IMG/VR virus record: IMGVR_UViG_2778261527_000008
Reading direction: 5' to 3' (one strand)
DNA from: a virus
Lineage: Duplodnaviria > Heunggongvirae > Uroviricota > Caudoviricetes
DNA: 35,461 nt
Shown: positions 1 through 35,461 of the stretch, piece after piece
Layout of the letters: each line of letters opens with the position of its first letter
Numbering within the stretch: position 1 is the stretch's first letter
The notes under the pieces: generated by a model
Seen by the model: only the letters and a program-made list of their open reading frames with translations
The model's database searches: none
What the model was told of the DNA's origin: nothing
Position numbers and translations under genes: made by a program

Positions 1-21
1 ATGCGAGGGACAGTCGAAATT

Positions 22-351
22 ATGCGTTATCCCGTCACTCTTACACCCGCGCCGGAAGGCGGTTATATGGTTTCTTTTGTGGATATCCCTGAAGCGTTGA
101 CGCAGGGCGAAACTGTCGCTGAAGCGATGGAAGCGGCAAAAGATGCTTTACTGACCGCATTTGATTTTTATTTTGAAGATAACGAGCTTATCCCGTTACC
201 TTCGCCATTAAATAGTCATGATCACTTTATTGAAGTACCTTTGAGCGTCGCCTCTAAAGTATTGCTGTTAAATGCTTTTTTACAGTCAGAAATCACTCAG
301 CAAGAGTTAGCCAGGCGAATTGGCAAACCTAAATGTTGTAAACCCCAATAA
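22..351 (+). CDS. hicB: HicB-family antitoxin, C-terminally divergent/truncated (frame open from window position 1; first plausible ATG at 22)
   Basis: Translation MRYPVTLTPAPEGGYMVSFVDIPEALTQGETVAEAMEAAKDALLTAF... matches my recollection of the enterobacterial HicB N-terminal domain; ORF ends ...RRIGKPKCCKPQ* at 349-351 where canonical HicB continues into a DNA-binding C-terminus; GC content drops after ~334. Confidence 0.55.
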   Translation: MRYPVTLTPAPEGGYMVSFVDIPEALTQGETVAEAMEAAKDALLTAFDFYFEDNELIPLPSPLNSHDHFIEVPLSVASKVLLLNAFLQSEITQQELARRIGKPKCCKPQ

Positions 352-574
352 CTAAAATTTTTGCAATAAAAAGCCCCATCTCAAGGACAAGGCTTAGAAA
401 TCAACTAATTAACATAGTTTCCAGATCAAAAGGGTTATAATGAAATCCATAAAAGGTGATCTGTTAGCTGGGTGCTGTATATCTAAAATGTTACTTAATT
501 AATATCGTTCTGGTGGTTAGCTTTCATCGCATCCCACCAGTCTTTTGTAATCTTCATGCTATTGAATTTCATAG

Positions 575-1345
575 TTATTTGCACCCGTACTGGTCAACAT
601 AGATTTTAGAATATCCTTGTTTTTGTACTTCTAAGCGAATCATATCTTGATTATCACGCCACACATAATATTTTTTGTTATCCACTTGACCTTCATATTG
701 CATAGCACCATTCTGATGCGTCACGGTTTTTGTTTTTGCTTTATGTGCGTTATAATTATCACGATACACAAATTCAATAATTTCCCCGTCTTTTACTTTA
801 AGTTTAAGTTCACCAGAGTTATAACGAGGATAACTAGGGTCTTTAACTACTTTTGTTTCTACCCCGTCGTGGATTTCCCATTCATAGTGAACATCGCATT
901 GTAATTCCATATCGCCTGTAAATCCTTTTGGTTTCTCTTCAACCTTCGGTTCTTCTACCACTTTTTCTTCCTGTTTCGGTTGTTCTTCTTCAACCTTCGC
1001 AGAAGTCTCTGAAACGCTCCCTGACGCGGTTTCTTCTTTAGATAATACATTCATCAAGTTTTGGATTTGAGCGTTGTATACAGCCTCCAGTGGCTGAATC
1101 TGCCCGATATTGATCATTGTATCACGAACAGTTTTATTCCAGTTGCGTTGCTCTTGTTTAAGCGACGGGTCAATCTTAACAGCCTTAACATATACTTCAT
1201 GAAGTTTAGAATCCAGTGCGGAGATTGACTCATTAGAACAAATAAACTTCTCTGATTTGGTAGTAGCTTTAGCGCAATCAAAGGACGCAGCATTAGCACC
1301 GAAAGCAGTAGCAGAAAGCACGATAGCAGCGATAATGTTTTTCAT
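575..1345 (-). CDS. secreted protein with DUF1311/LprI-like N-terminal domain, Glu/Lys-rich linker and C-terminal beta-rich domain (moron candidate)
   Basis: 256-aa ORF; signal peptide MKNIIAAIVLSATAFGANA; FDCAKATTKSEKFICSNESISALDSKLHEVY resembles the DUF1311 signature; RBS AAGAGG upstream of ATG. Confidence 0.45.
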   Translation of the reverse strand: MKNIIAAIVLSATAFGANAASFDCAKATTKSEKFICSNESISALDSKLHEVYVKAVKIDPSLKQEQRNWNKTVRDTMINIGQIQPLEAVYNAQIQNLMNVLSKEETASGSVSETSAKVEEEQPKQEEKVVEEPKVEEKPKGFTGDMELQCDVHYEWEIHDGVETKVVKDPSYPRYNSGELKLKVKDGEIIEFVYRDNYNAHKAKTKTVTHQNGAMQYEGQVDNKKYYVWRDNQDMIRLEVQKQGYSKIYVDQYGCK

Positions 1346-1703
1346 TTTATACCTCTTTTGGTATGGACTGACTTTTAGATGCTTACTTTATTGATTTTTG
1401 ATATTTTTTCAATTATTGGGATGAGATTTAGTAATTAAATTAAGAAATTAATGCTTGACAAATTAAAAAGGTACTGTTCCACGGATGAAATAAAGGGAGT
1501 TTTCGGCACCCCGGTATTTGATACGCGTGTGAGATTTTAAAACGTGATCAGTGCAGTCCTAGCGCGGTCGCTACGCGACTATTAACCCACTTCCTAGCCC
1601 TTACCATTACTGGATCTTTCCCTTCGTTAGAATGCGATTTAGGCGCTTAGATTGTGCGTAAAACCAATAAATAAAATTACGCAAATTTAATGGAGGATAA
1701 CCA

Positions 1704-2258
1704 ATGAAAGAAGAATTAACCCTTACAGAAATTTCCCGTTTATACGGCTATTCATTGAATGGTGGCGCTAAGCGATGGATAGAAAGGGGATTGCCATTTA
1801 ACACCAATACCCGCCGCGTGCCAGCCAAAGAAGGAACAGAATGGGTCTTGAAAAATATTATCAACCCGCTTAAACAAACTTCTATCAAAGAACAAATCGA
1901 TGTAGAGAAATTACGCCGTGAACGTGCTTTGGCAGATGCAGCCGAACGAGAGAACCAGGAAAAAATGAATCTCCTGATTCCTGTCGGTTATGTAGAACAG
2001 GAACTAGCGGAATATTGCGGGAAAGTGAAGCAGACTATTTTGCAGATCGCCACAATTGACGTTTTGGAAGTTCTCGAATCTGCCACCGACCAGAAAACAT
2101 TGAAGAACAAATTAAGGGAGATCATCGAGCGTCGTTTAAATGAAGTAGGGGACTTGTTCGAAAATGCTGATTTGGGAGAAGACGAGGAAGAAGAATTACC
2201 ATTAATGGATGAACCGGAAGAAGAACCAGAAGAAGACGATGAATTTGATGTGTCTTAA
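1704..2258 (+). CDS. terminase small subunit, Nu1-like (winged HTH N-terminus, acidic C-terminus)
   Basis: 184 aa; N-terminal LTLTEISRLYGYS...WIERGLPF HTH-like segment, EKLRRE segment and acidic tail reminiscent of lambda Nu1 architecture; RBS GGAGGA; same strand as terL. Confidence 0.5.
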   Translation: MKEELTLTEISRLYGYSLNGGAKRWIERGLPFNTNTRRVPAKEGTEWVLKNIINPLKQTSIKEQIDVEKLRRERALADAAERENQEKMNLLIPVGYVEQELAEYCGKVKQTILQIATIDVLEVLESATDQKTLKNKLREIIERRLNEVGDLFENADLGEDEEEELPLMDEPEEEPEEDDEFDVS

Positions 2259-2359
2259 AATTTCTATACTAAATACATATGTGAAAGATGTTGAGCTGGT
2301 CAACGTCTACGGGGGAGAACATCCCCCGCTTAACCTTTTTCTTATTTGAGGATTTACCT

Positions 2360-2461
2360 ATGGTTGAATTTTTGATTTATCTTACTGTAGGATTAACTAT
2401 CGTATATTCACTGGCACATATTGGCATTTCTGCTGTGTGTAACGCTTTCAAGTATCATTAA
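2360..2461 (+). CDS. small hydrophobic peptide (33 aa), single TM helix
   Basis: ATG at 2360 with GAGGA RBS 7 nt upstream; MVEFLIYLTVGLTIVYSLAHIGISAVCNAFKYH; below the ORF-track size cutoff. Confidence 0.25.
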   Translation: MVEFLIYLTVGLTIVYSLAHIGISAVCNAFKYH

Positions 2462-2514
2462 TTAAATCGATGAATTGAACTATAGATGATGGTCGTGTTC
2501 AAAGAGGATTATCT

Positions 2515-2688
2515 ATGGATCTTTTTGTCTACTTTGCTACTCTGCTGTTTTTGACTATCGTCGCTGGCATTAAATTGATTTTTATATCGCTGGTGGTGTT
2601 TTTCAAATTTCTAATCGGTACGCCTTACGGCTGGGTATGCTTCTTTTTGTTTATTCTTTTTAGTTGCTGTAAAAAGGATACTAAATAA
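2515..2688 (+). CDS. small membrane protein (57 aa, two predicted TM helices)
   Basis: ATG at 2515 with AGAGGA RBS; MDLFVYFATLLFLTIVAGIKLIFISLVVFFKFLIGTPYGWVCFFLFILFSCCKKDTK. Confidence 0.3.
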   Translation: MDLFVYFATLLFLTIVAGIKLIFISLVVFFKFLIGTPYGWVCFFLFILFSCCKKDTK

Positions 2689-2846
2689 TAGTGTAATCTG
2701 CCTTTTCTCCTTATGGTTATTAACAGGGGATCTTCTTTGAGGATTCCCGATTAAAAGCCATAAAACACACTCCAGTACAGTGTTTTCATAGTCAGTGATC
2801 TATACAACACAAAAACATAACAAGTATAGATTGAGTATTAATCCTC

Positions 2847-2872
2847 CCGCCCCTTCGGGGCGGTTATTTTTC
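2847..2872 (+). terminator. rho-independent terminator (UUCG tetraloop hairpin + U tract)
   Basis: ccgcccc-ttcg-ggggcgg followed by ttattttt. Confidence 0.6.
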
Positions 2873-2948
2873 TGGCTTTAAAGAATAATGTAGCATTATG
2901 TTCATTATAACCTCATCTTTGTTGTGCAAACCTAACCTAAACTTACTA

Positions 2949-2974
2949 GGGACTCTTCGGAGTCCCTTTTTTTT
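2949..2974 (+). terminator. rho-independent terminator (second, tandem)
   Basis: gggactc-ttcg-gagtccc followed by 8 T. Confidence 0.6.
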
Positions 2975-3215
2975 ATGCAACAATTCGAAGTGTAAGTTTC
3001 TTATGTTGTGTAGGTTTAGTTTCATTTCGCCACTCAGGGAATACATGATCCATCATAACCGCATTAGTCTCATCAATCAGCTTTAAGGACTTTCTCAACG
3101 CCTTATTATCAGCTTTAAGAGTTTTAATCTCTGATTCCATCGCTACCATTCTTTCTTTCATTTTGGTAATTTCTAACATCAGATTACCCAGAAATTCTTT
3201 GTTTTGATTCATCAT
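2973..3215 (-). CDS. hypothetical coiled-coil protein (80 aa)
   Basis: ORF with GAGGGG RBS; heptad-like KxL periodicity; no recognisable catalytic motif. Confidence 0.4.
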   Translation of the reverse strand: MMNQNKEFLGNLMLEITKMKERMVAMESEIKTLKADNKALRKSLKLIDETNAVMMDHVFPEWRNETKPTQHKKLTLRIVA

Positions 3216-3230
3216 AGATTCACCCCTCTA

Positions 3231-4232
3231 TTAAGCTGCGTATGCGTAGGCGCTGTAGTTGGTGTCGTAGATAGCGTCATGCAGTGCCATCTGTGCTTCG
3301 CGGATCTCGTCTTCGTTTACTTCAATCTCTTCTTGTTCTTCTTCGGTATCTTCCCAAGTGGTTTTGAATTTAGCCATAAAGTTATTGCGCAGGGATTCAA
3401 AGTTAGTAACAGGTGCGGATTTTTCTTCAACCGGAACTACTACCGGATCAGCTTCTTTCTGTTCTTCCTGTTCTACTTTTTCACCATTACCCCAGCGATA
3501 GTTAAGGAGTTCTTCCAGTTCTTCATCAATGGATTTTTCTTCAACTGCTTCAACTTCAACCGCTGCTACTTCGAAAGTGGTTTCCTGTGCTGCCAGTTCA
3601 GCTTTCAGAGATGCGTTTTCAGCTTCCAGTTCAGCAATGCGTGCTTTCAGTGCTTCAACTTCGGAAGATTCAACCACTGCAACTTCTTCTTTAACTTCTT
3701 CAACTACTACCGGAGCAACTTCTTTCTGTGCTTCTTTTTTGCAGAAGAAGGAGGAAGTAACCTGTAATGCGTGGTTGTAGAAGGAACCGCCTTTAGCGGT
3801 GTTAACAGTACCAGAAACATCCTTTACAGTGGATTCGGTAGCAACAGTACGGAAGCGTTTTGCGACTTCCTGGGTCTCTACGCCGTATTCGTTACGCTTG
3901 CTCTTGTGATGCATTACAGCACGGAAGCCGGAAGCAGTTTTAACAACAGCCAGATAGTAAGTTTCATCGGCTTTAACAGCACGAGCGAAGCAATAAACGG
4001 ATTCACCTTCTACCAGTGTAGGTTTAACGTGACGTTTGTCGAAACGGTTAGTGATCTGCCATTCAGCACCGTCTTTGATGCCAGCATTCTGACGCATTTC
4101 GGTCAGAGTCTTACCGGATACTACTTCAAAGGATTTGTCTTGTTTGCTTGCTTTACCTTCCATGACGGTAATGTTCAGTTTGCCGTTGGATTTAATAAAC
4201 AGGTTGAAGGTGATGCGCTTAGAATTTTTCAT
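3231..4232 (-). CDS. hypothetical protein: basic N-terminal domain, coiled coil, strongly acidic C-terminal tail
   Basis: 333-aa ORF with GGAG RBS; EVEALKARIAELEAENASLKAELAAQ coiled coil; Glu-rich tail; family not recognised. Confidence 0.5.
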   Translation of the reverse strand: MKNSKRITFNLFIKSNGKLNITVMEGKASKQDKSFEVVSGKTLTEMRQNAGIKDGAEWQITNRFDKRHVKPTLVEGESVYCFARAVKADETYYLAVVKTASGFRAVMHHKSKRNEYGVETQEVAKRFRTVATESTVKDVSGTVNTAKGGSFYNHALQVTSSFFCKKEAQKEVAPVVVEEVKEEVAVVESSEVEALKARIAELEAENASLKAELAAQETTFEVAAVEVEAVEEKSIDEELEELLNYRWGNGEKVEQEEQKEADPVVVPVEEKSAPVTNFESLRNNFMAKFKTTWEDTEEEQEEIEVNEDEIREAQMALHDAIYDTNYSAYAYAA

Positions 4233-4349
4233 TTATAAATACTCCTGAATGCTGTGTTAGTTTTAATTGTTCATATCAAAAGCCTCCTTGCGCCAACAGG
4301 GAGGCTTTTTTATTTTTAAAGCCATCATATAATTCTCAGTGAAAGGTTA

Positions 4350-4532
4350 TTACCAGACCTCGGCGGTAATCTTTACTTTAATGTCATACTTCTTTAAGAG
4401 TTTGTGGAAGGTTGATTGATCAATACCTTCACCTTTAAACCATTCACCCATCACTACATCAGGTGTCAGTTCAAAATAACGCTTTGCCATTTCTAAAACG
4501 ATTTCACGAGTGAACTTAACAGGTCGTGCCAT
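4350..4532 (-). CDS. small hypothetical protein (60 aa), possible DNA-binding regulator
   Basis: ATG preceded by AGGAGG RBS; first gene leftward of the noncoding control region. Confidence 0.4.
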   Translation of the reverse strand: MARPVKFTREIVLEMAKRYFELTPDVVMGEWFKGEGIDQSTFHKLLKKYDIKVKITAEVW

Positions 4533-4874
4533 CTTATATCCTCCTAAATCTGGAATAATGATTTCTTAAAAAAGAGCTTTTCGCTCTGAACAATTCTATT
4601 TATAAAATGTTTTTCGAAAAACCCTGTAAAACCACTGTATATCCGATCAGTGGGAGCACGAATTGCTAAAGAGAAGATTAATAATTAATCAATTCGTACA
4701 TTATTCAATCGAATAAGCACTGTATGTTTAGCCAGTTCTGTATGAATTAACAGTGAGTCAGGGGATTTTCAGAAGTGAACAATCATTTCATGCATGTATT
4801 TATACACGAAAAAATCTTGCGTATCATCAATATGGGGATTGTTTCGAAAATTTCAACCCCTACCAACGAGAAAA

Positions 4875-4903
4875 AGCATAAAATAATCCTTGACAGTTGT
4901 CAA
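4875..4903 (-). promoter_or_regulatory. candidate sigma70 promoter reading leftward, embedded in palindrome TTGACA-gt-TGTCAA
   Basis: on minus strand -35 TTGACA (4903..4898), 17-nt spacer, -10 TATGCT (4880..4875); the palindrome could also be an operator. Confidence 0.3.
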
Positions 4904-5100
4904 TACACTTGATCTAAGCGAGAGATGACTATCAAAATTTTTGTGTGAAAATGGCGGATAACGATTATCAACCTTTATAACCTATTATAGCACGGCGACC
5001 TTTTGATAATTCTTTTTAAATCATGCATTTACGGCGATTTTTGGTGATTTTCTGGTTAAATAATATACAAGAATTTTCTATCAAAATTTTTGATGAAAAA

Positions 5101-5220
5101 CCTACACTACAAACCTACGCTTTAAAGGGATTGGCCTACACTACACTAGCCAGTAAACCTACACTATAACACCCTCAAACCTACACTATGAAACCTACAC
5201 ACCTACACTAACCCTACACT
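5101..5220. repeat. iteron-like direct repeat array, core CCTACACT (6 perfect + 2 variant copies)
   Basis: copies at 5101, 5114(var), 5135, 5158, 5180, 5194(var), 5202, 5213; three successive spacings of 21-23 bp; often preceded by AAA. Confidence 0.6.
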
Positions 5221-5408
5221 TCAATCTCATAAGTGTATGATATTGAAAGACATTTCACCCCACAGACCATAGAATATAAAATTCGAACTAACGTTCTCCT
5301 TTTTGCTCGTTTTCTCTCACTACGTTCAAGAAAGATCTCGCAAAAAGAATACGGCGTAGCCGTGCGCGAAGCGCCCATCAACACCTTCTAAGACCTGCAA
5401 GCAGGATT

Positions 5409-5561
5409 CGAAAGGGATTGGATAGTTCGCTTCGCTCACGTTCACGCCTACGGCGTTCACTCGCTTTTGAAAGGATTTTCTTAGAAAGGGATTTAATACT
5501 AGTTACTAACTGATTCTAGTAAACGAACGAAGTGAGTAACAATCACTTTCTAGAAAGGTAT
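5409..5561. repeat. second direct-repeat family GAAAGG(G)ATT (4 copies)
   Basis: copies at 5409, 5468, 5483, 5552 inside a GC-richer structured segment. Confidence 0.4.
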
Positions 5562-5799
5562 TGGTTATCCCTTCGGGATTGCAACCTTCGGTTGCTAAAT
5601 TGCTTCCTGATTATTATTTCTCCAAAAGAAAGATTCTTATATTCTAAAGATACTTCTTCGTTTTGATGATGATTTAATCAAACCATGAAGGAGGGCTTTA
5701 GCCCGACTGAATACAATCACCTTTCATAATAACAAGAATTTTCTCTTTATAAATAATAGTGAACTTACTTGATTCACTTTCTTTTAGAGGATTTCCACT

Positions 5800-6267
5800 A
5801 TGAACCATAAAATGACTACCACTACTCCTTTTATCCTTCTGGGTCTGGATTCTGATAGCTTCCACAATGACAAGTTAATGAAGATGTTCCGTGAACGTGG
5901 TTATAACATCCTTTTCAACTCTGATGAATCCCATTTCTCTAGTGCATGGTATGCGTTTTACCGTAATAAGAAGCCGACCATTGTAGTTAACTGCTTCACC
6001 GATGAAGAACGCTTAAAGTACCAGGATCTACCAGCAATTATTGTCCGTGATGATCTGCCGTTTCAAGTCCGTTCCGGTGACATTGATCTGGGTAGCTTCG
6101 TTACTGTCTATGAACTGGATGAAGCAATGTTTAACTACGGCAAAGAAACCGCTCAGGAAGCCCCAGAAGAAGATGAACAAGACGAAGATGACGACGACTA
6201 CGCACCAATCTGTTTTTCTTCTCAGAATGGCTTCTACGGTTACGACGAAGGCTTAGATATGCTGTAA
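5800..6267 (+). CDS. hypothetical protein with strongly acidic C-terminal tail (EEDEQDEDDDDY)
   Basis: 155-aa ORF, AGAGGA RBS, E. coli-like codon usage; first rightward gene after the control region. Confidence 0.5.
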   Translation: MNHKMTTTTPFILLGLDSDSFHNDKLMKMFRERGYNILFNSDESHFSSAWYAFYRNKKPTIVVNCFTDEERLKYQDLPAIIVRDDLPFQVRSGDIDLGSFVTVYELDEAMFNYGKETAQEAPEEDEQDEDDDDYAPICFSSQNGFYGYDEGLDML

Positions 6268-6302
6268 GTTAGGTCAACCCTTTGGCGTCTTGTCAAGGGG
6301 TA

Positions 6303-6331
6303 TTGACAAAAATTTCTGACTTTTTTATGAT
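6303..6331 (+). promoter_or_regulatory. candidate sigma70 promoter
   Basis: -35 TTGACA 6303-6308, 17-nt spacer, -10 TATGAT 6326-6331; upstream inverted TGTCAA at 6291-6296. Confidence 0.35.
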
Positions 6332-6389
6332 TGTCGCACTTGACAACTTTAAACCTATTTGACCTAGATTTGTAAATGGGGTGTTAATT

Positions 6390-6536
6390 ATGAACACTAC
6401 TAAGAAAATTGATGGACGTAAAACCCCGAACCGCAAACCGTGGACCCCAAACCTGAATTTCTCAATGGTTGACTTCCATGAACGCCAGCGTCGCATTCAA
6501 GAAGAAATTGATCGCGCGATTGCTGAATCTAAATGA
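6390..6536 (+). CDS. small basic protein (48 aa)
   Basis: ATG at 6390 with GGGG RBS; MNTTKKIDGRKTPNRKPWTPNLNF...; below ORF-track cutoff. Confidence 0.35.
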   Translation: MNTTKKIDGRKTPNRKPWTPNLNFSMVDFHERQRRIQEEIDRAIAESK

Positions 6537-6633
6537 GATAAAAACTTCTTATAAATAAAATTGTTCCGGTGATGCTGCCGGAACTAGGAGGATCAATATC
6601 ATTATCGCAAAACCGTTTAAGGGGAATTTAATT

Positions 6634-7440
6634 ATGAATACTGTTACTGCTATGAATACTACTAAAACCGCTTCCGTGTCTCTGGTTGTTGATAACACCA
6701 AACCGCTGACCATGTCTTCTCGTCAGATCGCTGAATTTACCGGAAAGAAACACTTTCACGTAAAACGCGACATTCGCGAAATGCTGATTACCTTAGAATT
6801 AGATGAATCCAAATTTGGATGCATCTTTTTTGATCAATATGGACGCGAGCAAACAGAATATCACTTGAATGAAGAACTGACTCTGACTCTTGTCACTGGT
6901 TACAATATCCAGATGCGAAACGCGGTTATTCAGGAATGGAAGCGACTGAAAGAAGAAAATGAAAAACTTCGCTCTACTCCGGTTAACCCGTATGCAGACT
7001 TTGAAGAAACCGACTGGATCGAACTGGCGTTAAAGAAAACTCGCGAGAACAAGCAACTGATTACTCTACATCATCGCAAATCCGTAGATAGCCATTCAAT
7101 GACGCGTTTGTTAGGTGCTAAAAAGGGCGCTACGAAGGTTAAAGAAGCACTGACGGCCTTACGTACTGCCGGATACATTGAGCGCGTCTATGATGAAAAT
7201 AACAAGCCGTGTGGGTATGTTGCTAATGATTCCGCGATACCGTTTTGCAGCATGAACGCTCACTATCAACTTTCTTTCACTGTTGATGTGCTTCCGGTGC
7301 TGGTTGAATTGGGTGTTCTTGAAGAAGAACAAAAAGCAGCTTTGACACTGCCTAAACCGAATAACACGATCATGATTCAGAATAAAGCGACTATCATGAT
7401 TCGTCAGAATGTTGGATCGCTAGAACACTTCGGACTGTAA
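6634..7440 (+). CDS. phage regulatory protein, Rha-family antirepressor-like
   Basis: 268 aa; N-terminal SSRQIAEFTGKKHFHVKRDIREML typical of Rha/ORF6N DNA-binding domain; AAGGGG RBS. Confidence 0.55.
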   Translation: MNTVTAMNTTKTASVSLVVDNTKPLTMSSRQIAEFTGKKHFHVKRDIREMLITLELDESKFGCIFFDQYGREQTEYHLNEELTLTLVTGYNIQMRNAVIQEWKRLKEENEKLRSTPVNPYADFEETDWIELALKKTRENKQLITLHHRKSVDSHSMTRLLGAKKGATKVKEALTALRTAGYIERVYDENNKPCGYVANDSAIPFCSMNAHYQLSFTVDVLPVLVELGVLEEEQKAALTLPKPNNTIMIQNKATIMIRQNVGSLEHFGL

Positions 7441-7448
7441 TAATTTTT

Positions 7449-7473
7449 GCCCCTGAATTTCAGGGGCTTTTTT
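7449..7473 (+). terminator. rho-independent terminator
   Basis: gcccctgaa-t-ttcaggggc perfect inverted repeat followed by tttttt. Confidence 0.6.
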
Positions 7474-7522
7474 GTATCTGTAGGTATAAAAAAAGCCAAC
7501 CCCGAAGGATTGGCCTAGAGAA

Positions 7523-7753
7523 TCAAATTCCTGTTGCTTCTACCATTTCACCATCAACCTGAACAAAGAATTTCAAATCAACTTTATGAAGGGATTTGTA
7601 TAGCTGGGCTATGGATAAGCCATGCTCATTTAATACCCGCTCTTTGTTCTCTTTACCTTTCGGTGCTTGATAGTACGCTTTTACAATCGCTGCCAGTTGT
7701 TCACGATTAAAACGGGCAGGGCGACCGCGAGTAGCTTTAGTAGTCATAGTCAT
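7523..7753 (-). CDS. small putative DNA-binding protein with AT-hook-like RGRP motif (76 aa from internal ATG)
   Basis: ORF track starts at a GTG; the ATG at 7753..7751 has a GGAG RBS; MTMTTKATRGRPARF... Confidence 0.4.
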   Translation of the reverse strand: MTMTTKATRGRPARFNREQLAAIVKAYYQAPKGKENKERVLNEHGLSIAQLYKSLHKVDLKFFVQVDGEMVEATGI

Positions 7754-7782
7754 TTTCTCCAAATTAAAGTGAATGTTCACCT

Positions 7783-8388
7783 TTATTTAGAGGACTTACA
7801 TTTTATCGGAAAAAGTTCTCCATCGTCAACCGACATAAAGAACTCTGCCTTAATCCCGTACTTCTTCAACCGTGAATAATATGTACCCCGACTAATATCA
7901 ACCTTGCGCAGCACTTCGAAGAACTCTTTAGGATTCCTGTAATAGTGGCTATATCGCACGTTAGCGAGTTCTACAAACAATTCCCTTGTATCACCATAGC
8001 CTTTCTTGAAAGCCACGTTACGATAGCGTGTAATGGCATGATTCAATCTCTTCTGTTTAAGCACTTCCCTGATCGGCTTCCACTGCAACCGATAGATAGG
8101 ACCGTCATCAATGCGATAATAACGCTTGATATCAAAATCAAACCAATCTCGGACTCTCCGAAACTCTGTATGTGATGTTCTATGCTTCTTAAAGAAGTTG
8201 TGAACGTCTCTATAGCCATTATCACGGTAAAATTCTATTAAAATCTCTTTCGCTTCCTCACGGCTAAACCCAGATGTTGTGTAATCGGTCTTTAAGTGCT
8301 TATGTTTTACTGGCAAACGATATTCATGATCGGTACAACAAGACAAGGCTAATTCTACTTCATCTCTTTGTTGCTGATTAATTAGCAT
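7783..8388 (-). CDS. hypothetical basic protein with C-terminal HTH-like segment
   Basis: 201-aa ORF; Arg/Lys/Tyr-rich; ISRGTYYSRLKKYGI resembles an HTH recognition helix. Confidence 0.45.
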   Translation of the reverse strand: MLINQQQRDEVELALSCCTDHEYRLPVKHKHLKTDYTTSGFSREEAKEILIEFYRDNGYRDVHNFFKKHRTSHTEFRRVRDWFDFDIKRYYRIDDGPIYRLQWKPIREVLKQKRLNHAITRYRNVAFKKGYGDTRELFVELANVRYSHYYRNPKEFFEVLRKVDISRGTYYSRLKKYGIKAEFFMSVDDGELFPIKCKSSK

Positions 8389-8474
8389 ACACCCTCCTTA
8401 AATCTTAATACCGTATTTATCAAAATATAAACAATTTAATAAATACCTTCATATTTCGTAATGAGGGTAATTAC

Positions 8475-10382
8475 ATGAAACTGATTTCTAATAAGGCAAA
8501 ATTAAAAAAGATTCTCAGAAATGCAGCCAAATATATTACGCCACCGCCTAAACTCCTTCCATCGGAATGGTGCGAAGCGAATCTAACGCTAGTCGATGGT
8601 CCTCGTGCTGGGGATAAAGTTAAATTGCTGTCATTTCAGAAAGGCATGATTGATGCTCCTTTCCTTGAGAAGAAAAAGAAGTACGTTTTTTGTACGAGTG
8701 CGCAGATCGGAAAGACGACCATCATGTCAGGGATCATGTTTAACCAGATGGCAAACGATCCGTGTAATATCATTATCGGGCAAAGTACCGCTAAAGAAGT
8801 GGCTATGTACTTGAATACTAAGATCCGTCCTTCTATTGAAGCATGTCCGGCATTACAGGAAGTGGTAACAGATAAGAATGATCGTAATGCGGTAAACAAC
8901 AATAACCAGATTCAGCTAAAAACAAACCATTTCCTTTACATGGTTTCTTTGACCAGTCCTTCAAGTTTGCGCGGGCGTACTGCCAAGTTAGGGATTGTAG
9001 ACGAATGCGACGCAGCAACAATCACCGAAGAAGGTTGCCCGGTGGCACTAACTGCAAACCGTTTAACTACCTTTGGTGATGAAGCTCGATTGATTGTTTC
9101 TAGTACCCCGACCAATAAGCTGGGAATCATTAACCAGCAATGGTTATCAAGTGATATGCGTATGTTTTTTGTTCCGTGTCCTCATTGCGGGGAACACCAG
9201 GTGATCGAGTGGGAAAACGTTCAATTTGAATGGCGTAACATTGATGGTAAGAACTTACCCGATCCTGATACCGCTCGTTATATTTGCCCCCACTGTAAGA
9301 ACGCATGGACAGAAGGGGAACGAATCAGGGCAGTAGCGCAAGGCGAGTGGAGAGCAACCCGTGAAAGTGAAGTAGCAGGATTCTGGATCAGTCGTCTGTA
9401 TTCACCTTTCAGCACGATCCGCGCTTGTGTGGTTGATTTTAGTCATGCGTGGCAATCCTTTGATTTACAATCCTTTTTTAACACCGTGTTAGGCAAGGTA
9501 TACGACGATCAGGACACGGCAGTAGAAGCAAATGAACTGGAACAACTCAAAACAGATGTTTCTATCGAGAATATCCCTGATGACGTGATTTTCTTGTGTG
9601 CGGGTACTGACCAGCAATTAGATCGCGCAGAAACTACGATCATGGGCGTGGCAAAGGATAAGATTTATATTCTGGATCACCGCAGCTTTTACGATCATAA
9701 CTGTGAACGATATGAATCACCTGTATGGGATAGATTAATCAACTTCCATAAAACCAAATTTACTACTGTATCGGGTGATCGTGTTCCTATGCTCGCCAGC
9801 TTCCTTGATACATCGAACGGTCGATTCACTCAAGCTGGATACCGTATTTGCGGCAAGTGGAAGAACTTACACGCTATCAAAGGTAGTTCTGCTGGTAACG
9901 CTCCGATCATTCCGGTTAAACCTACCCGCACAGGTGGTCATGAATTGCTTATGCTGGGCGTTAACGTTGGGAAATCCGCTGTTCGTGAAATGCTGGTTAG
10001 AAACCTGAAAGATAATCCTCATATTGGCTTAGAAATATCAGAAACCATTCCTGATGATTATCTCGATCAGCTTTTGAGTGAATCCATCAAGCGTACTACT
10101 ACTGGCGTGCGTTGGGTGAAAAATCCAGGTAGTACCCGAAACGAGGCTCTCGACTGTCTGGTTTATAGCTATGCTGCTTCTCGCTACGTTCTTTCAAAAA
10201 TGTCATGGGATAAACTCATTGCAATGAAAGACAGCTTAAACCGTGTTGTCGAAGAATCCGTAGAAGCTCCTAAATCGCAATCTGACGAGCAAATCGAAGA
10301 AAATAAGCCAATCACACGACCACAACGTAAAAACATCGCCAGACGCCCAAATAGAGGCCGTAGCTGGGTAACATCGTTCTAA
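8475..10382 (+). CDS. terminase large subunit, lambda GpA family
   Basis: 635 aa, size and motifs (zinc-finger-like CPHCG...CPHC segment) consistent with GpA-type terminases; GAGGG RBS. Confidence 0.8.
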
Positions 10383-32280: not shown

Positions 32281-33960
32281 TTAAATTCCAAATTCTTGTA
32301 ATGGACCTGGTATTTCTTCTTCTGGTTTCCAGTTCTTATCTGTCAGCATGTCTAAACATGGATGCAGAACAAGCCCGTTACTCTCCAGAATCTGCCTATC
32401 ATTGATAGTCTTCAAATCAACGAAGATCCGGCCTTTCCTCGGTCCTCTTGAATTTTCTATTACAACTCTCTGGGTCTTGCCATCGATGTATTCCAGTACA
32501 AACAAGTTTTTGTACTTGTCAATCCTGCTACACCCGATCCGTTTTAGAGCTTGCTTAATCTTAAACCGGACCTTAATGCGATCCTCGTTGTAAACATCTT
32601 CTAAATCAAATTCTGCGAGCTTCTCCCAGCCTTGAGAGTCAACAGAATACATTTCCTCTTCTGCCATCTTAAGTTGATTGTAGAGTGTTTCACGCTCGCT
32701 ATTGAGGGTAGTAATCTGATCGGCTAGCTCCTTCGTTGCTCCTGTCATAGCAGAAAGGGTAATCAGGTTATCAATCTTGCGTGATATTTCATCAATCTGT
32801 ACTTTCAAAGCCGGAACCGGATTAGCCTTATCTTCAGCAATCCAGATTTTATCAGCCAGCAATTGCAATACAGCTTTCTCTAATTGGTCGCCGCGAAAAC
32901 TCCAGTTTGTATGCACACATTCAATACGACTAGAGCGCATTGCATCGCATGAATAACGATATTGGTTAGGCCGTCTGTTTGTTCCTTTCACCTTAACCAT
33001 AGCGGAACCGCAATGTTCACATTTCAATAGACCAACACCACTAAGCAAGGGAATAGGTTTAGCTTCTTCTTTGTCTCCAAAGTTACATGCTCTAACACCA
33101 ATGCTTTTCTTAAGGTGATAAAACTCAGCGTCATCTAGCACACGAGGATAATAATCCTTTAACTCATACTTAACGCCATCTACAGAGATTTCCTTGATAC
33201 CAATCAAAGCGCGGGTATGGAACAACCTTTCAATCATTGCCCGTGACCAGTTTGAATGCCTCTTGTGACTTGCGGCTGGTGGTGGTGTGTATGTCGCGTT
33301 AAGGTGATCCAGTATCTCGGCGGTTGACCGTCCATTCCTGCGTAATTCCACAACTTCCTGAACAATAGGGAAGAAGACCGGATGAGGAAGCACATAACCA
33401 GATGTGGTATCAGTCCACCACATATTCTTTCCAATTTCCTCGATTGCAACAGCCGGATTTTGTGGATTTTCTTGATGAGCTTTAATCTTAATCAGTGCGC
33501 TTGAGTTAGTACGATTGCGCTTAGTCTGGCTTTCCTCATTACCACGGATGAATAAAAGGATGGAGAACATCAGGTCCATCGGGTTAGCGGTAACAGTATC
33601 AAGCGAGTAGATCTTGTTATCCATGCCAGTAACAATGGTTATCCCCCTACGGATGATTGAAAGGAATAACTCCTGCGCACTGACAATATCGGCACGGGAT
33701 AAACGGTCCAAGTTTTCGATGAATAGCCAGCTACCAACAGGAACGGATCTACCTATTGCATCAAGGAAACGAGATAGCGCCCCTGTTTTGGAGTTAGCAC
33801 CCTTAAACGCAGATACACCCAGATCCTGATAATCATTTACCAGTTCAAGGTCATACTTTACCGCAATCTCTCTAGCCATCCTGATTTGTCGTTCATAACT
33901 CGAACCATCATTCTGACGCATAGACGAGAAGCGAATATACGAATACAGTTTAGTTTTCAT
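32281..33960 (-). CDS. large serine recombinase (integrase/resolvase family)
   Basis: 559 aa from ATG at 33960; N-terminal resolvase catalytic motif YIRFSS..Q; Cys-rich zinc ribbon CEHCG...C..C; coiled-coil segment. Confidence 0.8.
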   Translation of the reverse strand: MKTKLYSYIRFSSMRQNDGSSYERQIRMAREIAVKYDLELVNDYQDLGVSAFKGANSKTGALSRFLDAIGRSVPVGSWLFIENLDRLSRADIVSAQELFLSIIRRGITIVTGMDNKIYSLDTVTANPMDLMFSILLFIRGNEESQTKRNRTNSSALIKIKAHQENPQNPAVAIEEIGKNMWWTDTTSGYVLPHPVFFPIVQEVVELRRNGRSTAEILDHLNATYTPPPAASHKRHSNWSRAMIERLFHTRALIGIKEISVDGVKYELKDYYPRVLDDAEFYHLKKSIGVRACNFGDKEEAKPIPLLSGVGLLKCEHCGSAMVKVKGTNRRPNQYRYSCDAMRSSRIECVHTNWSFRGDQLEKAVLQLLADKIWIAEDKANPVPALKVQIDEISRKIDNLITLSAMTGATKELADQITTLNSERETLYNQLKMAEEEMYSVDSQGWEKLAEFDLEDVYNEDRIKVRFKIKQALKRIGCSRIDKYKNLFVLEYIDGKTQRVVIENSRGPRKGRIFVDLKTINDRQILESNGLVLHPCLDMLTDKNWKPEEEIPGPLQEFGI

Positions 33961-34023
33961 ACCATTTCCAAACAAAAACGCCCCTACCGCGTATTATAAC
34001 GATAGGGGCCAGGTGATTAAAGA

Positions 34024-34443
34024 TTAAAGAATTTCACGGCAGCTAATCAGGGAATAAGACGTATCACCTTTTTTAACATCAAATATAGGTGCGCCATCTA
34101 CAGAATGCAGATATTTGATGTAGGATTTACCATCTTCGGAACCATAATATTCTTCTTTCTCGTTCTTATCTTCTTTCAGTTTTGGGCTTTTGATTGTTTT
34201 ATCAAATACCGGATCGTTGAAAGCAAATTGACTATTATCATCATTCACTCGAACCTTTACACCGATAAAACCACGGTATTTGCCAGACGGCGCATGATAA
34301 TAACGGTCGCCATCACTCAGGTAGCGTGTATCATCTCCTTTATATTCGAAGTAGGAATTGCACACATAATAGGTATAGGTATTAGCATTCGCAGCACCAA
34401 CCAAACCCAGAGCAAGAACAACACCAGCGATAATCTTTTTCAT
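34024..34443 (-). CDS. secreted/periplasmic hypothetical protein
   Basis: 139 aa; signal peptide MKKIIAGVVLALGLVGAANA; two Cys. Confidence 0.4.
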   Translation of the reverse strand: MKKIIAGVVLALGLVGAANANTYTYYVCNSYFEYKGDDTRYLSDGDRYYHAPSGKYRGFIGVKVRVNDDNSQFAFNDPVFDKTIKSPKLKEDKNEKEEYYGSEDGKSYIKYLHSVDGAPIFDVKKGDTSYSLISCREIL

Positions 34444-34751: not shown

Positions 34752-35189
34752 TTAAGCGCGAACGATGGTCAGAGTATCCAGCAAACCTTTTTCGTATAAT
34801 TCGAAACACGTTTTATATTGCTCAATCTTCCAACCGTAGCGGGTGATCTTATTCAGTAGAATAATCACGGTATTCTCATCTAGGTATTGTCCTTGCTTAC
34901 CAATTACATATGACTCGCGGGATAGTCTCAGCTTACGGAAACCTTTAACACCTAATTCCTTAGCCACCGCTTTAACCTCGTTAATCTCACCTTCTGCGGC
35001 TACATATTCAGCGTCGATAATCTCAGTTGATGATCTCAGTGCTACCAGAACTAAGGCCATTGCTTCTTCTTCGGTACGAGCAACACCAGCTTTCTCGAAA
35101 GTCATCTCACCAAATTTACGAGTCATAATATTGAACATTGTCTGTATTCCGTTTAAATCGGCGGGAATAGTACCCGCCAAATTAGACAT
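34752..35189 (-). CDS. hypothetical protein
   Basis: 145-aa ORF; start overlaps upstream gene stop. Confidence 0.4.
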   Translation of the reverse strand: MSNLAGTIPADLNGIQTMFNIMTRKFGEMTFEKAGVARTEEEAMALVLVALRSSTEIIDAEYVAAEGEINEVKAVAKELGVKGFRKLRLSRESYVIGKQGQYLDENTVIILLNKITRYGWKIEQYKTCFELYEKGLLDTLTIVRA

Positions 35190-35461
35190 TACTTCTTGCT
35201 GATAAACTCTTTAGCGATAAAGTTGATTACTTCTTTCAGCTTCTTGTCTGTATCGATGCACGCTGGTAATTCTTCTTTAATATCCTGCGGCAGATACACA
35301 TTCCCTTTAAAGTGGAGGAAACCATCATTACCAATCATGTAGGAGAACATCCATTCACAATCGTTATCCGCTTCCCAGAACGCCACGGTCTCATCGTCAA
35401 TCAAGGTAATGTCCATGTTGCGACGTGCTGCGTAGTTGATGATTGCTTTACCGATGTTCAT
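35189..35461 (-). CDS. hypothetical protein (start coincides with window edge; may be N-terminally incomplete)
   Basis: 90-aa ORF whose ATG is the last three bases of the window. Confidence 0.35.
   Translation of the reverse strand: MNIGKAIINYAARRNMDITLIDDETVAFWEADNDCEWMFSYMIGNDGFLHFKGNVYLPQDIKEELPACIDTDKKLKEVINFIAKEFISKK

Follow-up and report, generated by a model that had tools for sequence, protein, structure and literature searches.

The window analysed here (IMG/VR virus record IMGVR_UViG_2778261527_000008, Caudoviricetes; 35,461 nucleotides in its whole length, numbered on one strand) is a complete prophage of ~35 kb integrated in the 3' part of hicB (hicA-hicB'...'hicB-ydcR). It carries a short leftward operon with the order orf60, hairpin, a gene for a protein of 333 amino acids (aa), orf80 and terminator, which faces a non-coding region of 1.27 kb (4533-5799). 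The gene for the 333-aa protein (3231..4232, minus strand) is the subject of this report. Its product is an orphan that belongs to no known family. Two properties are newly described here: the extreme and conserved codon optimisation of the gene, and the coupling of its alleles, across 31 loci, with the type of an array of short direct repeats (iterons). The protein very probably binds these repeats, and a role at a phage origin is tentatively proposed.

The gene and its orphan product

The open reading frame (ORF) extends from ATG to a stop codon within the span, and the Shine-Dalgarno (SD) motif AGGAG (4242..4246, minus strand) was read from the sequence 9 nt 5' of the start codon. It is a genuine gene, represented in more than 200 clusters of proteins that come from E. 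coli, Shigella, E. albertii and Salmonella. Among 5,426 complete E. coli genomes, 17 contained it, in each case as a single chromosomal copy. The preliminary description of the locus had proposed a basic domain, a coiled coil and a Glu-rich acidic tail, transcribed leftward from a control region. The ORF, the charge distribution and the heptad register confirmed this architecture, and the gene indeed points away from the 1.27-kb non-coding region.

According to sequence analysis, the protein is laid out as a basic N-domain, a leucine zipper and an acidic tail. The whole basic N-domain comprises residues ~1-170 (3723-4232, minus strand); residues 1-175 have an isoelectric point of 9.7 and a net charge of +12. 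Its allele-specific part (codons 1-135; 3828..4232, minus strand) cannot be aligned with the 313-aa allele described below, and the residues H109, S111, G148, F151, F162 and F163 are invariant across the family of the 333-aa protein. The zipper, a coiled coil of residues 190-216 (3585..3665, minus strand), is proposed as the dimerisation element on the basis of its register, its pattern of indels and database matches confined to coiled coils. The peptide EVEALKARIAELEAENASLKAELAAQ (residues 191-216) keeps a regular four-heptad register with V192, L195, I199, L202, N206, L209 and L213 in the a and d positions. Asn206 occupies an a position, where Asn is typical of dimeric zippers such as that of GCN4. 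Natural alleles vary at the zipper by an insertion of exactly seven residues, as expected of a genuine coiled coil.

The C-terminal half is strongly acidic (net charge -32, of which residues 176-225 contribute -9 and residues 226-333 contribute -23). Judging from its charge and low model confidence, the region of residues 217-333 (3234..3584, minus strand) is probably disordered. The motifs SIDEELEELLNYRW, SLRNNFMAKF and the terminal LHDAIYDTNYSAYAYAA (3234-3284) are kept in it, and the extreme C-terminus differs in the copy number of (YA)n (...NYSAYAYAA vs ...YAYAYAYAA; homologs P0001-P0120, window 3234-3260). The acidic region and the zipper also vary by short in-frame indels among the homologs, and alleles at least 94% identical range from 322 to 343 aa in length.

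The remote homology and structure searches suggested in the preliminary description were successful in one respect, as three diverged full-length relatives (66%, 45% and 28% identity) were found, and unsuccessful in the other, as no known family or fold emerged. A phmmer search of 1.84 billion representative proteins gave six matches with E <= 0.001, namely these three relatives and three fragments. No clear homology to a replication or recombination protein of a routine kind, named beforehand as the outcome that would refute the preliminary reading, was seen; only the protein's own relatives were found. Pfam, PHROGs and NCBIfam yielded nothing but sub-threshold coiled-coil noise for the 333-aa protein, its separate domains, the three diverged homologs and nine positional analogs, and PDB sequence profiles gave coiled-coil matches only. 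No hit was obtained by tblastn in 50,697 phage and 72,556 plasmid records or by megablast against phages, a profile of the N-domain added nothing distant, and a scan of GTDB species representatives detected no relative; the same scan with a terminase profile returned very distant terminases only. The AlphaFold2 model of the full-length protein has a predicted local distance difference test (pLDDT) score of 52 and that of the N-domain alone is worse (43); residues 6-112 form a beta-rich domain with two helices at pLDDT 62-84. Foldseek found no match with E <= 0.001 in PDB or BFVD, although the low quality of the model makes this a weak test of the fold. The top matches, PUR-repeat proteins (E = 0.2), were not significant and were not used.

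Particular families were also considered. No Pfam match to the lambda O type (Phage_rep_O) was obtained by hmmscan up to E = 5 for the protein, its N-domain alone or the three diverged homologs. Winged-helix Rep proteins (Rep_3, RepA_N) gave no Pfam, NCBIfam or PDB-profile match and nothing by Foldseek with the weak model. Profiles of OB-fold, SSB, Erf, RecT and Rad52 proteins did not match, nor was an OB-fold among the Foldseek matches, and ribbon-helix-helix proteins (ParR/RHH) were found neither by profile nor by fold. The bZIP class was rejected: bZIP_1 and bZIP_2 scored 14 bits, compared with cut-offs of 27.6 and 22.3, the matches covered the zipper alone, and the segment preceding it (residues 171-190) is acidic and not a basic region. 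No RNA family was detected by Rfam in positions 1-9000 of the window.

The frequency of optimal codons (Fop), computed with the classical set of E. coli optimal codons, is 0.852 for the gene, with 0.9% rare codons. This is the highest optimisation in the element: the major capsid protein gene reaches 0.675, all other genes of the element 0.37-0.63, and 21 flanking host genes have a mean of 0.467 and a maximum of 0.573. Resampling of synonymous codons for the same aa sequence gave z = 9.9 against the usage of the phage and z = 6.3 against that of the capsid gene; the former value means that amino-acid composition cannot explain the bias. Local mutation bias was excluded as well, because the bias is equal in the two halves of the gene and is not shared by its same-strand neighbours orf60 (0.51) and orf80 (0.41). 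The bias is kept in the 66% and 45% orthologs (0.835 and 0.777, vs 0.37-0.68 for their neighbours), and unrelated alleles in the same slot have values of 0.68-0.78, at or near the top of each locus and well above the host baseline of 0.47. Such codon usage suggests that the protein is required at high, stoichiometric levels, and the Fop, the strong SD motif and the consensus promoters found in a phage with the 313-aa allele make very high expression plausible.

Coupling of the alleles to an iteron array

The non-coding region contains, ~0.9 kb from the gene, an array of eight iteron copies, (T)AGTGTAGGTT(T), all in a single orientation (5098..5224, minus strand), which is the proposed binding site of the 333-aa protein. 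The cores start at 5100, 5113, 5134, 5157, 5179, 5193, 5201 and 5212, and the spacings of 13, 21, 23, 22, 14, 8 and 11 bp are near multiples of 11 bp. Matches to the repeat numbered 19 where 6.3 were expected, and this count was reached in none of 100 shuffled sequences. Intragenic copies (4016, 3008) were discarded as functional sites, as neither the 66% ortholog nor other alleles have kept them and conservation does not extend past near-identical alleles.

An AT-rich tract with at least 80% A+T (5053..5097) abuts the iterons and is common to phages with different alleles. Further to the left lies the DnaA-box-like sequence ATTTTCACA (4944-4952), conserved across the alleles. The sites of this kind match the DnaA box in 8 of 9 positions at best, and no IHF consensus was found. 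The conserved leftward promoter-like site TTGACA-17-TATGCT (4875..4903, minus strand) has its -35 box overlapped by the palindrome TTGACAACTGTCAA; the array is located 200-320 bp upstream of it and, in the window, is not overlapped by a strong promoter. Sites resembling rightward promoters (5247-5282) occur just to the right of the array. A separate palindromic operator system (CACTG-N-CAGTG; ATCAAAATTTTTGAT) was also considered and dropped, its enrichment being unconvincing.

A terminase profile search of IMG/VR provided ~50 related phage genomes, and the coupling was scored in 31 loci. The 333-aa protein, or an allele of the same architecture, occupies the slot in every related phage with enough upstream sequence, and the gene is syntenic in the diverged relatives. 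The term accessory island used in the preliminary description is not supported: the slot is fixed in related phages, and it holds the most codon-optimised gene of the element. The alternative alleles are of the 313-aa, 333/337-aa (loci L036, L066), 371-aa (L039) and 377-aa (L046) types, and every one of them keeps the basic N-half, the zipper and the acidic C-half. The 313-aa allele aligns with the 333-aa protein from residue 137 on (30% identity, E = 5e-6, BLASTP), the alignable region including the zipper, the acidic linker and the motif LHDxxYxTN[YF]S; for residues 1-135 there was no BLASTP alignment and the hhalign probability was 0.3%. The zipper of the L046 allele is 53% identical to that of the 333-aa protein.

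The iteron type matches the allele in all 31 loci. Each of the 13 loci with the allele type of the window carries GTGTAGGT iterons (7-11 copies), and each of the 15 with the 313-aa allele carries CAGGGGCAA iterons (5-9 copies). The remaining arrays consist of TTGTACAYC (11 copies) in L039, TCAAATGC in L046 and GTGCAGGG (5 copies) in L002, which encodes the 45% ortholog. The position of the array is kept in the syntenic loci of the diverged orthologs, its sequence being unchanged with the 66% ortholog and changed (TTAGTGCAGGG) with the 45% ortholog. The neighbouring genes do not follow this rule. A version of orf60 100% identical to that of the window was found with both allele/iteron types, whereas versions only 54% identical accompany the allele of the window, and orf155, Rha, orf201 and the large terminase (TerL) also reassort relative to the allele.

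Blastn comparisons resolved two discrete non-homologous cassettes (2973-4232 and 4581/5098 to ~5460/5608) with shared DNA between them. In comparison with the phages carrying the 313-aa allele, homology stops at 2972, restarts at 4233, the base beside the start codon of the 333-aa protein, and is lost again at 4581-5460; in comparison with L036 and L039, shared DNA extends to 5097 and breaks at the first iteron. That two separated patches co-vary while the intervening DNA recombines indicates functional coupling between them. The 333-aa protein is accordingly very likely to bind the iterons, and its divergent N-terminal domain would be the iteron-reading head. This comparative evidence also supports the earlier guess that the protein binds nucleic acid. 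The mutual specificity of protein and repeat is seen as a perfect association in 31 loci, which is correlative; many of these loci are close relatives and not independent samples.

The rest of the allele-linked cis cassette (5225..5460) includes a GC-rich, long imperfect hairpin (5335-5460; -53 kcal/mol, z = -4.3) that ends, on the minus strand, in a terminator-like stem with a U-run. This block is near-invariant in the loci of the 333-aa protein's family, 81-83% identical in the 45-66% orthologs and absent from phages with the 313-aa allele. Neither covariation nor compensatory changes were detected in it, and it had no Rfam match. It could encode a leftward small RNA, act as an antisense to the rightward leader or be a part of the origin.

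Several other repeats were noticed in the related loci. In L025, a phage with the 313-aa allele, two remnant iterons of the type found in the window (AAACCTACACTA, CCCTACACTA; 4672-4694 of L025) lie at the edge of the CAGGGGCAA array and look like a scar of cassette replacement. L039 has two repeat families side by side (5320-5780), TCCCCGGTATTAG in ~5 copies and GATGTACAAG in 9-11 copies, while in L036 (5530-5800) the (A/T)TCCCCG type occurs alone. Downstream of the allele, L036 and L039 both have a gene for a protein of 333-363 aa with a beta-rich N-domain and a coiled coil, which ends with ...TLRLVA like orf80. These larger downstream genes had no family match; their product may represent a second DNA-binding paralog having repeats of its own.

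Possible functions of the 333-aa protein

We favour, tentatively and knowing that it may well be wrong, the reading that the 333-aa protein is an origin-recognition or replication-organiser protein of the phage. The basic N-terminal domain would read the 11-bp repeat, the zipper would form a parallel dimer, and many dimers would load side by side on the array phased at ~11/22 bp. The acidic C-terminal half, whose motifs recur in alleles that are otherwise unrelated, might mask the basic domain when off DNA or recruit a partner independent of the allele, such as the host replisome, a chaperone or a conserved phage protein; acidic tails of SSB, gp32 and gp2.5 act in these ways. [quoted passage not shown] An origin role is favoured because the direct phased repeats abut an AT-rich tract conserved across alleles, with a DnaA-box-like site further to the left, because replication genes could not be recognised in any phage of the group, and because delayed-early expression is suggested for the gene. 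The precedents of the exchange of PLE RepA binding domains with their origins and of the iterons and AT-rich tract of ori-lambda argue in the same direction.

The nonpolar, ssrA-like end ...YAYAA, kept in essentially all full-length members of the family, may, speculatively, make the protein a substrate of a ClpXP-type protease; the ssrA degron ends with ...YALAA, and ClpX substrates of this C-motif-1 type need a nonpolar, ...LAA-like end to be degraded. The -AA end is retained in P0124, P0126 and the L036 allele.

A number of observations weigh against the origin-protein reading. The -AA end is not universal, as the 313-aa (...SYCQ), L039 and L046 alleles end with -CQ, -AM and -FA, and proteolytic control is therefore only a suggestion. 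The extreme codon bias is easier to reconcile with a stoichiometric or coating function than with a catalytic initiator and, to our knowledge, known initiators are not usually the most codon-optimised genes of their phages. No helicase loader or other partner was identified, and neither sequence nor fold (model pLDDT 52) matched lambda O, Rep_3/RepA, RepA_N or any DNA-binding fold. The DnaA-box-like site fits in just 8 of 9 positions and the origin features are generic. The iterons, 0.9 kb away, are neither inside the gene nor adjoining it. In L025, where the array lies directly upstream of two perfect-consensus leftward promoters that feed the operon, its position also suits a transcriptional role.

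Functionally, the 333-aa protein looks like a new variant of iteron-binding origin or control proteins, and comparison with known systems shows both likenesses and differences. Lambda O has a type-specific N-terminal part, a more conserved recruiting C-terminal part and an acidic linker, and is rapidly degraded by ClpXP. Ori-lambda consists of iterons and an AT-rich tract, and the N-terminal part of O recognises the repeated origin sequences (PMC3349717). The 333-aa protein is likewise predicted to be an early phage protein that would bind repeats beside an AT-rich tract. Unlike lambda O, to which it has no sequence or fold similarity, it possesses a leucine zipper and extreme codon optimisation, and the phage has no P-like helicase loader; the iterons, direct repeats of 11 bp, lie outside the gene, whereas those of lambda are four 19-mers with inverted repeats inside the gene. 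The RepA variants (RepA_N) of the Vibrio cholerae PLEs are specific for their cognate iteron origins, and the origin was exchanged together with the origin-binding domain as a module between related elements (PMC8263062). The population pattern of paired allele and iteron exchange is the same here. However, the 333-aa protein has no RepA_N or other Pfam match and has a zipper and a polyacidic tail, the PLE iterons are semi-palindromes of ~30 bp, and the co-varying cassettes of the present phages are split by shared DNA.

The Rep proteins of iteron plasmids (RepA, RepE, pi, TrfA) act at repeats of the same orientation spaced by ~22 bp, accompanied by an AT-rich region and DnaA boxes, and are subject to proteolysis. 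Similar same-orientation phased repeats and an AT-rich tract, with DnaA-box-like sites of 8/9, are found here, but the 333-aa protein lacks the WH1-WH2 winged-helix signature and any Rep_3 match, its module was found on no plasmid, and it looks very highly expressed, whereas plasmid Reps are typically rate-limiting and poorly expressed. The phi29 protein p6, an abundant early protein with an acidic C-terminus, forms a phased multimeric complex at the origin and modulates early transcription. It is a precedent for the combination of abundance, phased array and acidic tail, and by its example an abundant origin-organising protein is possible; p6 differs in its size (~100 aa), in reading DNA bendability instead of a defined repeat and in having no coiled coil, and no similarity to it was detected.

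The main rival of the origin-protein reading, which we regard as unlikely though deserving attention, is that the 333-aa protein is an immunity repressor or transcriptional regulator which coats the array beside the early promoters and sets the choice between lysis and lysogeny, the allele/iteron pairs being immunity types. The plan of such a protein would resemble that of the Mu repressor c, which has an N-terminal DNA-binding domain, a central zipper and a C-terminal tail that controls degradation by ClpXP, and which binds multiple sites in an operator region of ~200 bp. The Mu repressor differs in its length of 196 aa, the lack of a polyacidic region and the arrangement of its sites, and has no sequence similarity to the 333-aa protein. 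Many specificities in near-identical phages are the classic pattern of an immunity region: L022 and L023, whose TerL is 97% identical to that of the window, carry different alleles. No other repressor was recognised by homology in the prophage, yet orf60, orf85, orf201 (helix-turn-helix-like) and Rha are alternative regulators. Constitutive expression in lysogens could account for the strong adaptation to host codons, but the position of the gene, behind two terminator-like hairpins and with no promoter of its own, suggests delayed-early and not lysogenic expression. The placement of the array speaks for a regulator in L025, immediately upstream of the two leftward promoters, and in the window with regard to the adjacent rightward promoter-like sites, and speaks against it with regard to the distant leftward promoter and the lack of overlap with a strong one. 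Arrays of 8-11 same-orientation repeats phased at 11/22 bp are atypical of operators, and the phage would still be left with no replication function.

The remaining readings share the weakness that the coupling of allele and iteron is left unexplained. An abundant protein binding or annealing single-stranded DNA with no sequence specificity, after the logic of T4 gp32, T7 gp2.5 and SSB, would account for the basic core with its acidic C-terminal tail, the very high predicted expression and the place in the early left operon. The order of the model's elements (beta-beta-beta-alpha-alpha-beta-beta-beta) and the nucleic-acid-binding fold of the non-significant PUR-repeat matches would also fit. 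Nevertheless, a non-specific protein needs no unalignable alleles that co-vary with a duplex repeat array, and with no match to any OB-fold, SSB, Erf, RecT or Rad52 protein the similarity is confined to the layout of charges, so that this reading appears very improbable. Hardly more likely is a centromere-like or packaging-site adaptor, for which the array would be a site of the parC or pac type and the acidic tail would capture a motor, as with ParR-parC or a small terminase. The direct repeats phased at ~11 bp recall centromeres of the R1 parC/ParR type, and small terminases share the plan of N-terminal DNA binding, coiled coil and C-terminal partner binding. Against this, the whole prophage contains no partition ATPase or GTPase (no ParM, ParA or TubZ gene), the phage integrates by a serine recombinase, a separate small-terminase-like protein exists (orf184), the TerL types reassort independently of the alleles, and tblastn found the protein on none of the plasmid records.

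The preliminary description had seen in the protein a candidate host-interaction factor, and had found its architecture reminiscent of scaffold-type proteins. As an accessory or anti-defence factor, for example a DNA mimic like T7 Ocr, it would have in its favour the strongly negative C-terminal half, the early position and the high expression, and the terminators flanking the cassette give it a moron-like appearance. A slot that is always occupied and syntenic, the coupling of the gene to the phage's own cis-acting repeat array and the lack of any match to PHROG anti-defence families or anything else (PADLOC was not searched) render this reading very doubtful. A scaffold does not fit either: the capsid protein is a protease-capsid fusion (Peptidase_S78-Phage_capsid), the gene is not in the head module but 4 kb upstream of TerL on the opposite strand, and co-variation with a DNA repeat would not be expected of a scaffold.

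Returning to the origin-protein reading, the 333-aa protein might even be the first representative of a class of phage origin/control proteins that has so far gone unrecognised, in which an abundant, zipper-dimerised iteron coater combines unrelated, interchangeable heads with a common acidic recruiting tail; we consider this possible but doubtful. If it were true, a temperate phage of 35 kb would replicate although it encodes neither a helicase, a primase, a loader nor a classical repressor, the protein would possibly also set immunity, and the head/iteron pairs would diversify under pressure from competing phages or defences that target origins.

The lineage is one of temperate E. coli phages present in natural isolates including enterotoxigenic E. 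coli, O55:H7 and Shigella. Both replication and early control seem to be managed in it without any gene recognisable as one for replication or for a repressor, and its most strongly codon-optimised gene is an orphan. A demonstrated function at the array would define a new family of DNA-recognition domains, or several in view of the unrelated heads, and would also assign a role to a fixed slot in this phage group. Natural orthogonal pairs of protein and DNA site could serve as specificity parts. More generally, an orphan gene can be paired with a partner in cis from codon bias combined with mosaic co-variation where homology and structure prediction both fail.

Neighbouring genes and the prophage

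The first gene of the leftward operon, orf60 (4350..4532, minus strand), is situated between the gene for the 333-aa protein and the iterons and encodes a small helix-turn-helix-like protein. The leader of ~335 nt between the leftward promoter and orf60 (4533-4870) holds strongly conserved segments, e.g. CTCTTTAGCAATTCGTGCTCCCACTGAT, and just 5' of orf60 a terminator-like hairpin (4573..4587, minus strand) was found. A second terminator-like hairpin with a 13-bp stem (4278..4309) separates orf60 from the gene for the 333-aa protein and is conserved at the locus of the 313-aa allele; its T-run is strong on the plus strand and merely TTTT on the minus strand. The two hairpins suggest that the operon requires read-through or antitermination for its expression. 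Directly 3' of the gene for the 333-aa protein lies orf80 (2973..3215, minus strand), followed by the terminator (2948-2967). It encodes a small coiled-coil protein that could not be assigned to a family in Pfam, PHROGs or NCBIfam; it is a part of the same allele-specific cassette and occurs only with alleles of the window's type.

The products of orf60, orf85 (7523-7780) and orf201 (7783-8388) are paralogous (BLASTP E = 2e-5 and 1e-3). They share the unit RP-x-(K/R)F-x-RE...Y-x-x-L-K-K-(Y/V)-(D/G)-(I/L)-K, which orf201 contains twice, and represent a phage-specific, small helix-turn-helix-like family with no counterpart in the databases; they are candidates for the real transcriptional switch. 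The product of the first rightward gene, orf155 (5800-6267), likewise terminates in a polyacidic stretch that is capped by an aromatic/hydrophobic tip (...EEDEQDEDDDDYAPICFSSQNGFYGYDEGLDML), of which EGLDML is kept in all relatives while the remainder reassorts. An acidic tail is also present on orf184, and the acidic-tailed proteins of the phage may have a common docking target.

The prophage encodes a large terminase of the lambda gpA type, a portal, the protease-capsid fusion, a tape measure protein, tail fibres, an M15 endolysin and Rha. Profile searches of the whole prophage recognised no replication, recombination or repressor gene, and the large ORFs of the window and related phages, inspected for hidden replication genes, matched only tail, capsid, homing-endonuclease, PIN and Rha proteins; the early regions of the related phages likewise have no recognisable gene of these three kinds. 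The product of orf184 is small-terminase-like (PHROG 57, E = 1.5e-11). Its gene (1704-2258, with an acidic tail ending with DEFDVS) is 6 kb from the large terminase gene (8475-10382), and the whole early/control region separates the two, which is unusual for a packaging module of the lambda gpA type. The nearest isolated phage is remote, the top TerL match being 43% identical and belonging to a 141-kb phage, and literature searches on the RefSeq accession and on a prophage at the hicB site gave nothing relevant.

The prophage ends associated with hicB are at 1-351 and 35189-35461. The left end is a truncated hicB, and E. coli CE0007a (NZ_CP119011) has the other hicB fragment just past the right end of the window. 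Insertion into hicB was presumably catalysed by the large serine recombinase encoded at 32281-33975. Some related prophages adjoin ycdX/ghrA instead of hicB (the loci compared included L001 and L005). Signal-peptide- or lipoprotein-like genes at the prophage ends (575-1345 and 34024-34443) are possible lysogenic-conversion genes; one of them encodes a lysozyme-inhibitor-like protein of the LprI family and the other a protein of 139 aa.

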